Shown: piece by piece, positions 15,499-22,196 of the stretch
Position numbering within the stretch: position 1 is the first letter of the stretch
How the letters are laid out: every line of letters begins with the position of its first letter
From: Torpedo marmorata
Taxonomy: Eukaryota
NCBI GenBank assembly: GCA_977017645.1
Contig: OZ360227.1
Coordinates: 101,184,001 to 101,248,000, forward strand
DNA length: 64,000 nt
Direction: 5' to 3'
Program-made: the position numbers and the translations under genes
Notes under the pieces: model-generated
What the model was told of the DNA's origin: nothing
What the model saw: the letters and a program-made list of their open reading frames with translations, nothing else
Databases searched by the model: none

Positions 15499-16145
15499 AT
15501 TCAGATTTCAGATTTATTGTTTCAGATTTCAGATGTACATACGACATCACATAAAACCCTGAGATTCTTCTTCCTGCGGATGAGGTATAATTACCACTTA
15601 TTGGCAGTATAAAAAAAACAGACTCAATGTACACATGTAAACAAATAAAGAAATGTAAACAAACTGGCTGTGCAATACAGAGAAAGAAAAAAAAATCAAT
15701 AAAGTGCTAAATTAAGAGTCCTTAAATGATTGAGTTTATTGTTGAGGAGTCTGATGGTGGAGGGGTAGCAGCTTTCCCTGAACCTGATGGTGTGAGTCTT
15801 GTGGCACCTATACCTATTTCCTGATGGTAGCAATGAGAACGGAGCGTGTGCTGGGTGGTGTGGATCCTTGTTCATTGCTGCTCCTCTCCGATGGCAGCGT
15901 TCCCTGTAGATGTTCTCAATGGTGGGGAGGGTTTTGCCTGTGATGTCCTGGGCTGTGTCCACTACCTTTTGCAGGACTTTGCGCTCAGGGGTATTGGTGT
16001 CCCCATACCAGACCATGATGTAGCTGGTAAGCACACTTTCCACCACACATCTGTAGAAATTTTCCAGGGTTACCAATGTCATACCAAACCTCCACAAACT
16101 CCTGAGGAAGCAGAGGCGCTGACGTGCTTTCTTCACGATGCCATT
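15499..16145 (-). mobile_element. Rex1/Babar LINE, 3' part (interrupted by BEL element)
   Basis: IVKKARQRLCFLRSLWRFGM...FYRCVVESVLT; continues at 21624; collinear with the uninterrupted copy near 37750. Confidence 0.9.
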
Positions 16146-16680
16146 TGTAAGAGCCATAGGCTTGGTTACTTACCTTCATCGCGGCGTTCCGATGTATCCA
16201 GCGGGTTTCAGAGGAGTTACGGAGATTAGTAGGCTGTGCTAGGCCTATTGAGTAATCTGCGCATGCGCGGGAGTGCCGACGGGCGCATGCGCAGTAGGGA
16301 AGTGGCTGGAGCATGCGCGGTGGAGTATGCGCGGTGGACCATGCGCGTTAATCAGGGAAGAAGTATATAAGAATATGGCGACTTAGAGGAGGGTGAGTGA
16401 GATCGCCATAGCTTTCATTGACCGTTTAAAGGAAGTTATAAAGAATCGTTTTAAAGGAAGTTTAAAGACGTTTTAAAGAATTGTTATTAAACATCATTAT
16501 CAAGAATTGTTTATATTTCGTTAAAGAAGATATTTAAGTCTTTGAAGATTGCTACAAGTCATCGTGTGTAAATAAAGTTTTTTAACCTATTGGACTTGTT
16601 AGTAAATTAATTGAAACGCGTCATGAACAAGTGTCTCACCTAGCCTCCAAGTGACTATTTGTTGGATTGAAATCACTATA
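16146..16680 (+). repeat. 5' LTR of BEL element
   Basis: TGTAA...CTATA; TATATAA at 16364; AATAAA at 16571; ~18 substitutions versus the 3' LTR counted by eye, many at CpG. Confidence 0.95.
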
Positions 16681-17139
16681 TTTTAGTCAATGAAAGTTTA
16701 TTGTTTGGAACAGAAAATTGAAGGAAAGAAGATAGAATAAGCTCTCTGTGCTTTGGACTGATATTTAAAATAAGATGGTGGCCATTTTGGAAATGCCTCG
16801 AGTTAGGGGCAGTTTGTAATCCACATCCATCTGCCATGAGTATCAGCCAGAGAGGGATATAGAGCTTCAAATCTTATAGTGAAGTGTCCTACAAAAATAC
16901 GCTGGAGAAACCATTTCTCGAAAATCAGCGATATTATTGACGGATGCTGCGGTGGAAACTCGTTTGTGAATAGTAGCACATTACAGTCATCTGAAGTGGT
17001 AGGCATAAGTCTGTGGACTCCTTCTGTGTATCTTTGGCAAGTTTGAACACAGATTGGATTTGCTGCCGCAGTCCATTGGGGACTGTTGATTTGGCTAGTG
17101 TTGTGTATGCTAGAACGACGGTGGAACAAGACAAGTAAA

Positions 17140-17784
17140 ATGGCCGCAGCAGCCACTGATGTTGCTGCTGAGGAACAACGTGTTGAAGACATGAAGGTTG
17201 TGGAGCTCAAAGAAGAATTGAAGCGACTGAAACTAGATACAACTGGAAATAAAAAGGTTCTCATCACAAGACTGAAGCTGGCAAAGGAAGAAGAGGCTGC
17301 TTCGTTTGATGAACATGAAGACAGCAACGTGGAAATGGCGGAAAATGTGTCACCAAATGATGAAGAAAACGAAGAGGATGAAGATGCAAAGGATGTACAA
17401 TTCGAATTGGTGAAGGAGGTAAGTAAGAAGACAACATCTGACCTATAGGATGAAATACAAGCATGTGACAGTGTCTCAAATGTTGAAAGCAGGAGAAGCA
17501 AACTAAGTTCCGGTTCAAGCTCCAGAGTTTATCGTACTTCAAGTTCTGCATCGTCACGTACAAAGGTTGAAGTTGACTTGGCCACTCTTCTTGCGCAACA
17601 AAAAACACTTAAGGATAAACATATTTTAGAACGACAGGAGGAGCAGCTAAGGCAAAAGGAGGAGCAGCTAAAGCAGCAGCTAGAGCAGCAGCTAAGCCAA
17701 GAGAAGGAGCAGCTAAGGCAGAGAAAGGAGCAGCAGGATCTGGAAGCAAACATTACTATTGCCAGGGCAAAAAAAAGGTACTAG
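17140..17784 (+). pseudogene. Gag N-terminus: SAP domain plus BEL gag coiled coil (in-frame stop at 17446)
   Basis: MAAAAT...VEDMKVVELKEELKRLKLDTTGNKKVLITRLKLA, then in the same frame DSVSNVESRRSK...LLAQQKTLKDKHILERQEEQL as in fish BEL gag. Confidence 0.8.
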
Positions 17785-18114: not shown

Positions 18115-19110
18115 GTGAACAGAGCAATGTATTGTCATCCAAAGGAAAGAAAAAATGAAATTGCTGCATCATTGATTCAGTTACAGTCTCTCTCTTCTTT
18201 GCTTAAGAAAGAGATTCAAACTTTTGATGGTGATCCACTTCAGTACCAAGCGCTCATGAAATCTTTTAGACGCAATATTGAAAATAAATGTCAAGACCCT
18301 GATGAATGTCTTTATTATTTGGAAATGTTCACAAAGGGACATCCAAGAGAACTTGTAAAGAGTTGTCAACATATGTCCTCAGAAAGAGGATTAGACAGAG
18401 CTAAGTCTTTACTAGAACAACATTTTGGCAACAAGCATCGAATTGCTTTAGCTTATATGGATAAAGCTCTTAAATGGACATCAATAAAACAGAATGATGT
18501 AAAGGCTCTACAAGCATGTACTCTCTTTTTAAGAGGATGTTGTAATGCCATGGAAGATATCGATAATATTCGTGAGCTTGACGTGCCTGGTAATATGCGA
18601 ATCATCTTAGATAAATTACCTTACAAGTTGTGGGATAGATGGAGAAATTTGGCTTGTGATTTACAAGAAAATTACAGTCAAAGAGCTACCTTAAAGGATT
18701 TGGTAAATTTTCTTGAACGACAGGTGTACATTGAAACAGATCCAATATATGGAAATACCAGAGACAATTCAATGGGGAACAAAGATGTAAGGAAGTCAAA
18801 CTCACAGCCTAGTCCAAAATTGAAAATGAGTACTTTTGCTACTAATGTGTCAGTTATAAATAAAGAAAAAGATAAAGTAAATAAGGAAAAGGAAAGTTTG
18901 ACTAATGAGAAGAGTTGTTTGTTCTGTAAAGGTGTACATGCTTTGGAAATGTGTTTACGGTTGGAAAAGAAGGAACATAATGAGAAGATCGCTTTCTTAA
19001 AGGAAAATGGAGTGTAGTTTAGCTGTCTGTGTAAAGGGCACATCAGTAAAAACTGCGAGAAGCGAATTAACTGTAACATATGCAATTTGAAGCATCCTAG
19101 AATGTTGCAT
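18115..19110 (+). pseudogene. BEL/Pao gag core (DUF1759-like) with three Cys/His knuckles
   Basis: EIQTFDGDPLQY...LYYLEMFTKGHPRELVKSC...LLEQHFG; CLFCKGVHALEMC, (stop replaces C)FSCLCKGHISKNC, CNICNLKHPRMLH. Confidence 0.9.
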
Positions 19111-20832
19111 ATCCATCAAAGAAACAAGGAATTGGAAAAGGAGCAAACAGAAACAAAGGAAACATCAGAAAACAATGTTATAGCCTCGGTTCAGACAAGT
19201 GGTCTTACCGGGGCCGGTATGGATAACTGCAAACTTTCAATAGTGCCTGTACAAGTCAAGATTAAGAACGGGGATGCAACAGTACATACGTATGCATTTC
19301 TCGACTCAGGCAGCACTGAATCTTTTTGCACGGTGGGACTAATGCACAAACTTAATATTCAAGGAAGAAGGTCAAGAATTATGTTGAAACCCATGGGACA
19401 AGAAAAGGTTGTTGAAACCAGCATTGTTTCAGGCTTAGAGGTTGCTGGATTGTATGACAAAAAATTTTGTGATCTTCCAAGTTTATATACTCAGAAGATT
19501 ATGCCTGTGCACGAAGGAAACATTCCGCATCAAAATGATTTCCATCATTTGTCTTATCTGTGGAAGGTTTATTTACCTGAAGTTAATTCTGAGATAGAAA
19601 TGCTGATTGGTTCAGATGTACCAAAGGTTCTGGAACCACCAGAAGTAATACAGAGTAGAGAGAATTGTCCTTACGCTGTTAGAACCAAGCTTGGTTGGCC
19701 AATCAATGGACCATTGGAAAGAAATAATGATATTGCACAGGAACAGTTAGTGATAAATGTTAACAGAATTTCGGTTGTGAAATTTGATGAGTTAAGGGAA
19801 GAGCAAAAGACTGTGAATAAGAAAGTCACTTTTGAAGAAAAGAAAACAGATCAATGTGAAAATAAATCAAAGGTATTTAAAACAACATTGAAGGAATTAT
19901 TTTCATCAGAAATGGATGAAAATGAAGTATTAGAAGATGTTGCAAATAATACTAGTGATTATTCATGTGTAATTGAATCAGAGGCAGGAATAAAACAAGT
20001 GACTGAGAACAAATTTGAAAGTAAATTTTGTAGTTCGGAGGTTACAGCAGACAAAGTCAATGAAGAAATGTCGCAATGTGATGTAAAACTGGAGAACACA
20101 GAAAATTGTGCTGATGGAATAAAGAAGAATGTGAATGATAATTTAATGCAATTGAATTCAGAGAACAAAATGTTGAAAGGGGAACTGGAAATATTGGATA
20201 ATCATGAAAACAGTAAACAGAAAGATTTCATTGTAAATAAAATTCGCAAAGTCAGAAAGCGGAAGAAAAGAATAACTGCTGAAGAAATAAATACAGTTAT
20301 TGAAGAAAGAGATTCAACATTATCAAGATGTAAAAGGTTGGAGGAAGAGATTCATTTTTTGAAAGAGATCAAGTTATTGGTTAATAACACAAAACAGCTG
20401 ACTATAGAAAACAATCAAGAATGTAAATTGAAGGTTCAGCTGTTAACAATGCAGAAAGAAAGTGATATTGCATTGCAGCAATGTAACAAGCAAGATGAAG
20501 AAATTCAAATATTTCAAGTTTACCATAGCAGGGTTGACAACAAAAGTATCAATGTATCACATGATATTTTCACTTCAGATCAAGTTATTAATTTCTCAGA
20601 AGGAACTGAGACTGAATTGAAAGTTGCAAAATTGGATTTGGAATTGCAGGAAAAGGCAATAGAAACCAGAGTGGTTAAAGAGACTCGTTTATTAAAATCG
20701 AGAGGATCAGATAAATATTCAAATTCTGGTTATGAAAGTTCAAATTATTCATATGAGAAACGACATGTTGAAGAAGTACCTTGTGTTAAATTCAAAAGGA
20801 AAAACTATCTATTTTGTCTGAGGAAGATTTGA
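19087..20832 (+). pseudogene. BEL aspartic protease fused to a non-pol tail containing a MIPOL1-like coiled coil
   Basis: SIVPVQV..TYAFLDSGSTESFC, MLIGSDVP, AVRTKLGWPINGP; then ITAEEINTVIEERDSTLSRCKRLEEEI where RT should be. Confidence 0.85.
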
Positions 20833-21088
20833 GGTTTACTGGTCGACGTTCTAACTCAAAGATTCTGGAGATAAAATAACTTTGATAAATACAAACTGAC
20901 TTTATTTTGTTATTTTGTATACTACACAGGTTACAGACTTTTACTGATCCAGAGTTATGGTAAACTCTGTTCTTATGAAGAAAGAAGATTTGTATATTGT
21001 TTGAATGTTATATGGTTATTGTTATTTGTAATTGATTGTATAATTATTATTTAAGACATTGCGTCTCGTTATAATAATTAGGGGCCGG

Positions 21089-21623
21089 TGTAAAAGCCAT
21101 AGGCTTGGTTACTTACCTTCATCGTGGCGTTCCGATGTATCCAGCGGGTTTCGGAGGAGTTACGGAGATTAGTGGGCTGTGCTAGGCCTATTGAGTACTC
21201 TACGCATGTGCGGGAGTGCCGACGGGCGCATGCACAGTGGGGAAGTGGCTGGAGCATGCGCGGTGGAGTATGCGCGGTGGAGCATGCGCGTTAATCAGGG
21301 AAGAAGTATATAAGAATATGGCGACTTAGAGGAGGGTGAGTGAGATCGCCATAGCTTTCATTGACCATTTAAAGGAAGTTATAAAGAATCATTTTAAAGG
21401 AAGTTTAAAGACGTTTTAAAGAATCGTTATTAAACATCGTTATCAAGAATTGTTTATATTTCGTTAAAGAAGATATTTAAGTCATTGAAGATTGCTACAA
21501 GTCATCGTGTGTAAATAAAGTTTTTGAACCTATTGGACTTGTTAGTAAATTAATTGAAATGCGTCATGAACAAGTGTCTCACCTAGCCTCCAAGTGACTA
21601 TTTGTTGGATTGAAGTCACTATA
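21089..21623 (+). repeat. 3' LTR of BEL element
   Basis: Direct repeat of 16146-16680, followed immediately by TSD CCATT. Confidence 0.95.
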
Positions 21624-22196
21624 CCATTAGTGTGTTGGGTCCTGGAAAGATCCTCCGAGATAGTGACTCCCAAGAACTTAAATTTGCTCACCTTCTCCAT
21701 CTCTTATCCCCCAATGATCACTGGTTCGTATACCTCTGGTTTTCCCTTCCTGAAATCAATAATCAGCTCCTTGGTTTTGGTGACACTGAGTGCAAGGTTG
21801 TTGTTGGAGCACCATTCAGCCAAGTTTTCAATCTCCCTCCTGTATGCTGACTCATCGTCCCTTATTAAGCAACCCACTACTGTGGTATCGTCAGTGAATT
21901 TGTAGATGGTGTTGTTGTCGTACCAAGCCACACAGTCATAGGTGTAAAGTGAGTAGAGCAGAGGGCTAAGAACTTAGTCCTGTGGTTCTCCGGTACTGAT
22001 GGAGATTGTGGGGGAGATGTAATATCAATCCTCTGATTGTGGTCTGGAGGTGAGGAAATCAAGGATCCAATTACACAGTGGGCTTTTGAGTCCTAGGTCT
22101 TGGAGTTTGCTGATCAATTTTGAGGGGATGATGGTGTTAAATGCTGAACTGTAGTCGATAAAGAGCATCCTGGTGTATGCATCTTTGCTTTCCAGG
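21624..22196 (-). mobile_element. Rex1/Babar LINE, RT part (continuation of 15499-16145)
   Basis: [29 protein letters not shown]...ESAYRREIENLAEWC. Confidence 0.9.

Follow-up and report, generated by a model that had tools for sequence, protein, structure and literature searches.

The Gag protein of a BEL/Pao retrotransposon lineage of Torpedo marmorata opens with a SAP domain. In the reading that we consider probable as a whole, this domain was copied from the 5′ end of the host gene SLTM's spliced mRNA, likely acquired once by template switching, and likely serves as a DNA or chromatin tether. To our knowledge, accessory chromatin-binding domains of mobile elements are usually too old for their donors to be traced, and the biology of BEL/Pao Gag proteins has hardly been studied. 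Here the donor gene, the splice junction, the start codon, intermediates, the displaced domain and SAP-less relatives are all in hand. The series allows direct study of the tuning of a host domain after capture and of its effect on the site and frequency of insertion, and the swap identifies a part of Gag that can be replaced.

Structure of the element and its copies in the genome

The stretch of DNA analysed (64,000 nucleotides; referred to as the window) contains an LTR element, and the start codon of the SAP domain is located 460 nt inside it (Table 1). The element is bounded by 535-nt LTRs and a CCATT duplication, and its LTRs, target-site duplication and polypurine tract are those of BEL/Pao (Belpaoviridae) elements. 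A canonical TGG primer-binding site is absent after the 5′ LTR (window 16681-16700); the LTRs terminate with TA in young copies and with CA in older ones. The window copy is broken: its frame stops after 102 codons, shifts near 17770, returns near 18155 and meets a second stop within the Cys/His knuckles. It is non-autonomous, retaining DUF1759, the knuckles and the protease and lacking RT, RNase H and integrase. In place of pol it carries further spliced host captures, derived from Elongin A and, with a back-splice junction, from MIPOL1. The first-pass annotation of this DNA had placed the SAP domain in frame with gag; this holds for the family, in which SAP stands first in each of the 11 autonomous relatives whose frames span 2,018-2,134 codons, and fails for the window copy with its broken frame.

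Table 1. Features of the SAP-bearing element of the window and loci cited for its MIPOL1 insert
Feature	Position in the window (or loci)	Strand	Basis
Target-site duplication, left copy (5 bp, CCATT)	16141..16145	+	sequence
5′ LTR (535 nt, TG...TA; 18 differences, 3.4%, from the 3′ LTR)	16146..16680	+	
Decayed SLTM-derived 5′ leader, recognisable in part only in the window copy	17103..17139	+	
Captured coding part of SLTM exon 1: ATG, Ala-rich start, SAP domain (PF02037 at 17182-17277)	17140..17280	+	
3′ terminus of the captured stretch: 16 nt from the start of SLTM exon 2, directly following exon 1, the 1,184-nt intron being absent	17281..17296	+	
Acidic linker, in-frame stop (17446-17448), then conserved Ser-rich/coiled-coil Gag segment	17297..17781	+	
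Gag core DUF1759 (PF03564, E=1.1e-6)	18223..18645	+	
Three Cys/His knuckles, presumably the nucleocapsid region (label from knowledge of BEL/Pao Gag), interrupted by a stop (19015-19017)	18915..19116	+	read from translation
Aspartic protease region with DSG motif (Asp_protease_2 at E=0.19 only)	19249..19449	+	
Captured MIPOL1-like exons, permuted (A-B-C, then X-Y) and continuing the frame of the protease; junction of back-splice type at 20528/20529	20223..20685	+	
Captured Elongin A (ELOA) exons, remnants (77-91%)	20673..20863	+	
Polypurine tract preceding the 3′ LTR	21080..21088	+	sequence
3′ LTR	21089..21623	+	
Target-site duplication, right copy	21624..21628	+	
Loci cited for the permuted MIPOL1 exons and the host gene	L195, L203, L206, L208, L216		

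A Gln/Glu-rich tandem repeat (window 17638-17748), whose length varies among copies, lengthens the Gag coiled coil. The element is nested in a fragment of an older non-LTR retrotransposon, with RT-like frames flanking it on both sides (15696-16169 and 21704-21973, minus strand). An open frame of approximately 400 nt (window about 19805-20222), downstream of the protease region and preceding the MIPOL1 piece, showed no match to the three host genes and may be a fourth capture.

Searches of the 6.2-Gb genome yielded 4,945 first-look DNA candidates for the SAP region and 29,045 for the SAP profile, figures which are not copy numbers; the latter, with 29 of the 30 top SAP loci matching the element, suggests that the lineage has contributed a large share to the genome. 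The remaining top locus is a host gene, which we take to be hnRNP U-like. SAP was present upstream in 18 of 20 loci chosen by Peptidase_A17. Locus L036 encodes SAP, DUF1759, RT, Peptidase_A17, integrase and DUF5641 in one frame; the order Gag-PR-RT-RH-IN with Peptidase_A17 and DUF1759 was found in L036 and L041 (DUF1759 at E<0.01 in L036 only). The LTR pairs of the 11 loci with full-length frames are 97-100% identical, four of them fully. Among the 20 copies nearest to that of the window, 16 carry the same pol-replacing insert, one (L026) has RT, and three were not covered. The window copy is a member of a pol-less branch which keeps SAP, Gag and protease, and whose mobilisation would depend on the autonomous relatives acting in trans. 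Contigs of two other organisms cover the SAP codons and those of two more hold many copies of the pol-replacing insert; the lineage thus extends beyond this assembly.

The SAP domain, its donor and further host captures

The start aaaATGGCC (17137-17145) and the peptide (17137-17295) quoted in the first-pass annotation are present as written, and the SAP domain that it had claimed was recovered by a Pfam scan (PF02037, residues 15-46, 43.1 bits, E=3.1e-11). Its score of 43.1-44.5 bits exceeds the gathering cut-off of 23.9. The predicted model has the helix-extended loop-helix fold of SAP domains (helices 11-20 and 29-44, pLDDT 89), and its best structural neighbours (Foldseek) are all SAP domains, with TM of 0.7-0.9 and, owing to a domain length of only 45 aa, E>0.1. 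Across 15 copies, 11 of the 45 columns are invariant, including Lys, Gly-x-Lys and Arg-Leu positions; the basic surface residues that characterise SAP vary little or not at all. The lowest Pfam score was that of the youngest autonomous SAP (38.5 bits, compared with 45.3 for host SLTM), so the constraint is not absolute. Two derived lineages reach 52-59 bits on the SAP profile (host SLTM, 45), in loci chosen for high score and hence biased.

The donor was sought with a profile of 15 natural element copies against a protein collection. Since multi-SAP repeat proteins topped the 138 matches of the SAP profile among representative proteins, matches were rescored per domain; the best single-SAP match was chimaera SLTM (61 bits), other SLTM and SAFB1 proteins reaching 50-57. 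A protein search with the 102-aa frame of the window gave no match among 850 candidates (longer proteins), and the leads of an Atlas search with the Gag N-terminus were all below 0.9. Searching the genome with the SLTM N-terminus revealed an old subfamily of the element; its SAP shares 85-90% identity with the chimaera protein. Both host genes, SLTM and SAFB1, were located in the same genome, the SAFB1 N-terminus being 98% identical to a stretch of a sawfish protein. A second SAFB-like gene is present at G000:C54:17152770-17155194, about 1 Mb from SAFB1.

The proposal that the domain comes from SLTM, and that the start codon itself may have been captured with it, was borne out: nucleotide identity, leader and exon junction identify the donor as SLTM, not SAFB1 or hnRNP U, and the old subfamily carries the ATG together with 37 nt of the SLTM 5′ leader, near-identical to that of the host. 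In blastn comparisons, old copies align with host SLTM exon 1 along about 189 nt, with 79-90% identity (E to 3e-69), and give no match to SAFB1 coding exon 1; the SAP codons of four old copies are 93-96% identical to SLTM and 60-64% to SAFB1. The window copy matches SLTM exon 1 at 68% over 132 nt (E=6e-17), with SAP codons 70% identical to SLTM and 52% to SAFB1. All sampled lineages are nearer in DNA to SLTM (65-77%) than to SAFB1 (47-58%), a comparison in which SAFB1 was the only SAFB-like paralogue.

In the old copies the match extends from the leader to the end of exon 1 and on into the first 16 nt of exon 2, skipping the intron. The exon 2 stretch is identical at 16/16 nt in 14 of 17 old copies and at 15/16 in the other three, and all 17 differ from the intron sequence at 10-11 of 16 nt. 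To judge by this junction, the SLTM piece is derived from a spliced host mRNA. The linker following SAP was also considered as a continuation of SLTM exons 2-4; this was rejected, as DNA similarity stops 16 nt into exon 2. The old copies carry residues of this host's own SLTM (the Ala-rich start and a Cys before SAP), which the chimaera protein and P0224 do not have, so the capture occurred in the lineage of this host.

Past the protease, the frame of the element runs on into host-derived sequence. Its coiled-coil part was assigned to MIPOL1 by an Atlas search (0.96), and host MIPOL1 was located by the junction pattern. The MIPOL1-like block is 81-89% identical to five host exons. In the host gene the exon order is X-Y-Z-A-B-C over 206 kb (G000:C40:64385712-64591881); in the element, and likewise in the window, part of A, then B and C are followed by X, Y and the first 18 nt of Z. 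The donor of C (exon end C40:64385712) is thus joined exactly to the acceptor of X (exon start C40:64591881), 206 kb upstream. This junction, a clean case of back-splicing recorded inside an LTR element, was present in 44 fetched loci, some of them overlapping. Its form indicates that the insert was likely copied from a circular RNA; the permuted order may also have arisen by trans-splicing or by a switch at a shared AG.

In old non-autonomous copies as many as five exons of Elongin A are recognisable (87-99% identity), without their introns (captures in L106 and L157-L164; host locus near 39.0 Mb of G000:C41, L153-L156). The ELOA family search matched at 136 places. The ELOA copies vary in the presence of one exon, and in L159 the MIPOL1 block lies inside the large ELOA exon. 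A 15-nt stretch between MIPOL1 and ELOA in L157 (5080-5095) and its homologues resembles the beginning of the LTR of the element itself and is possibly the trace of a further template switch.

The lineage therefore repeatedly takes up spliced host RNA, which supports the same route for SAP. SLTM mRNA would have been co-packaged in a particle, and template switching during reverse transcription would have joined its 5′ end to gag; we regard this route as highly probable. In the available text of Tan et al. (PMC5131818), template switching is an established means by which LTR elements, among them BEL/Pao, acquire spliced host RNA.

Order of events, selection and the displaced domain

An RT/RNase H tree was constructed from 25 genome copies and 25 outside proteins, the latter nameless or labelled as teleost, omitting eight near-identical young copies and L130 (poor alignment). 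Genome copies and outside proteins are split by one change on this tree, with support of 67/87 for the monophyly of the SAP copies; L045 was placed within a SAP lineage, yet no SAP was found in its stretch. The SLTM-like subfamily is at the base, on a stem of 0.005 (support 84/74), the two derived lineages are sisters (94/91, each 100/99), and SAP-less elements fall outside, at about 0.2 RT substitutions per site. The identity of the SAP codons to host SLTM is 91-96% in old copies (n=14), 74-79% in intermediate copies (n=6), 71-75% in the window family, 65-70% in young autonomous copies (n=10) and 59-68% in the second derived lineage (n=11); L103 and L106 have intermediate SAP sequences. The simplest reading of the tree and these identities is one capture, after which early copies were frozen as fossils and two lineages evolved on, and we consider a single capture very probable.

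Selection was estimated from pairwise counts over 37 SAP codons, a small part of the constraint being added by the host branch. Between the host and young autonomous copies dN/dS is 0.20 (Fisher p=2e-4); after removal of CpG-touching codons, pS is 0.62-0.68 and pN 0.18-0.21 (p 1e-4 to 1e-3, four copies). The ratio is 0.34 between the two derived lineages (p=0.02) and 0.66 among old dead copies, as expected with decay. By these counts SAP is under purifying selection in recently active copies, which supports some function of the domain without saying which.

Relatives were sought with the first 800 residues of L036, which gave at least 78 polyproteins, the named ones mostly teleost; the closest among the matches listed is 49% identical to this query. 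The first-pass annotation had allowed for a long-standing SAP carried by related transposable elements. None of the 78 related BEL polyproteins from elsewhere, among the matches listed, has a SAP in its precomputed domains and none matched the window SAP (best E=0.4); among the 185 proteins found with SAP, again of the matches listed, there was no match at E<0.01 to either the BEL Gag core or pol. Instead, 54 of the 78 relatives have a conserved helical domain within the first 120 residues, predicted as three long helices (pLDDT 91) and without a Pfam, PDB-sequence or Foldseek match at E<=0.001. The fish BEL Gag N-termini (P0001-P0061) share this conserved three-helix domain, with invariant Arg, Trp-Phe and Trp.

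Homology of the old SAP copies with the closest relative begins after the helical domain, and the acidic linker of these copies contains a short trace of it (40 residues, 35%, E=6e-4). The Ser-rich/coiled-coil Gag segment which follows (within 17297..17781) is common to SAP-less relatives. Within the same genome, the ancestral helical domain or a SAP-less sister gave no match among 53 candidates (one query) and was absent from 235 fetched loci. SAP would thus have replaced the ancestral three-helix domain at the Gag N-terminus, and is, on these comparisons, a lineage-specific swap rather than a BEL/Pao family trait.

Other accounts of the origin fare less well. It is quite unlikely that there were two captures, an older SAP later refreshed from SLTM mRNA, or that the route led through a genomic processed pseudogene instead of a packaged mRNA. 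Two captures would accommodate the weakly supported base of the tree and the motifs that the derived SAPs share with SAFB1 and generic SAPs, but all sampled lineages are closer to SLTM in DNA, a common linker follows the junction and intermediates exist. As regards the pseudogene route, an RRM search of the genome revealed no intronless SLTM copy, its nine matches being split exons at three host loci plus three weak unrelated ones. The view of SAP as an old accessory domain common in BEL/Pao Gag, similar to SLTM by convergence, retains practically no probability. Such a domain does occur in Zisupton transposons and in a Penelope-like family, according to the available text of PMC8557442; for the present lineage, however, the nucleotide identity, which includes synonymous sites, the 5′ leader, the exon junction and the absence of SAP from the relatives listed refute it.

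Possible function and comparison with known systems

With an origin by capture from SLTM mRNA, Gag or a capsid-bound cDNA complex would grip host chromatin via SAP before integration. The first-pass annotation had suggested a chromatin or nucleic-acid tether that could influence targeting or packaging. Such a tether, to DNA or chromatin, is the role that we favour, as a plausible but tentative one, because the SAP of SLTM is described as its DNA-binding part and the RRM as its RNA-binding part (available text of PMC10901741), because the basic and Gly-x-Lys positions are conserved, and because foreign binding modules can take the place of Gag-derived retroviral chromatin tethers (PMC6021111, in its available part). 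The AT content of flanks is 63% near insertions and 60% further out (n=24, p=0.049), in a set with some miscalled ends and no SAP-less control; with a signal so weak and uncontrolled, targeting is not shown.

A role in particle assembly or in the packaging of RNA or cDNA, in which SAP of the same origin would bind nucleic acid inside the particle and stand in for the three-helix domain, appears somewhat unlikely. The domain does occupy the site of a structural helical domain of the relatives, it stays constrained in the pol-less branch, which supplies only Gag and protease (dN/dS 0.27 versus the host and 0.38 versus young autonomous copies), and an RNA-binding SAP (3′hExo) is among its structural neighbours. 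Packaging is normally performed by nucleocapsid knuckles, however, and all three are retained in the element; the description of the SLTM SAP as DNA-binding also speaks against this role. We consider it unlikely that the capture was favoured for its new leader and strong start codon, with SAP kept merely as a folded, soluble N-terminal cap. This would agree with a captured stretch starting 37 nt upstream of the ATG and with the change of about a quarter to a third of the non-synonymous sites in the derived lineages (pN 0.23-0.30), yet in the lineage of the window the leader decayed while the SAP codons stayed under purifying selection, the basic surface positions typical of SAP were kept, and the two derived lineages outscore host SLTM on the SAP profile (with the bias stated above). 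It is very unlikely that SAP acts as a decoy, competing on chromatin with SAFB-family repressors of transposon RNAs. SAFB1, SAFB2 and SLTM act on L1 transcripts, and in mouse also on those of LTR/ERV elements, by binding and suppressing them (available text of PMC10901741), and the donor is one of these repressors; but their repressive effect is linked to RNA binding and the captured piece lacks the RRM, and SAP drifted from SLTM-specific residues after the capture, which would not be expected of a mimic.

Returning to the tether, we advance with considerable reserve the possibility that its acquisition from SLTM, a member of a family of transposon repressors, drove the expansion to tens of thousands of copies, with the series from fresh capture to tuned domain preserved and a circRNA-derived insert fixed in frame.

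We found no report of SAP or of an SLTM piece in BEL/Pao Gag in the open literature (subscription papers, Repbase and Dfam lay outside the search); the term SAP does not occur in the available text of PMC3118150 and PMC8321522, nor in the ICTV profile of Belpaoviridae (PMC8742986). The element shares with the family described in this profile (i) LTRs, a 5-bp target-site duplication and a polypurine tract, (ii) a single Gag-Pol frame and (iii) the domains DUF1759, protease, RT, Peptidase_A17, integrase and DUF5641; the profile has no N-terminal SAP, and the nearest relatives found here have the three-helix domain at that place.

The capture of host mRNA is a known process, and what is new is that it yielded a retained Gag domain of an autonomous element. 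In LTR-mediated retroposition, as presented in the available text of Tan et al. 2016 (PMC5131818), spliced host exons likewise replace part of the internal frame, several genes can be combined, and the products, with BEL/Pao examples among them, spread as non-autonomous elements. There, the retrocopies reside in disabled elements; here, the SLTM piece forms the start of Gag, is under purifying selection and occurs in recently inserted elements with a full polyprotein of 2,000 codons. SAP as an accessory domain of mobile elements is also found in Zisupton, a DNA transposon, and in the Penelope-like Chlamys-1_pPol, a non-LTR element, for which the available text of PMC8557442 names no donor; in our case the carrier is Gag, and donor, junction and intermediates are preserved. 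A possible functional analogy is provided by MLV p12 and the CBS of foamy virus Gag (PMC6021111, in its available part), replaceable Gag parts which tie the capsid or cDNA to chromatin. Those are short viral nucleosome-binding peptides tested experimentally, whereas a folded host domain with a putative role is considered here. Finally, the circRNA-derived pseudogenes described in the available text of Dong et al. 2016 (PMC4897178) also exhibit a genomic back-splice junction associated with LTRs (mouse circRFWD2, 42 copies), while in the present lineage a high-copy non-autonomous element carries the permuted MIPOL1 exons in frame downstream of its protease.
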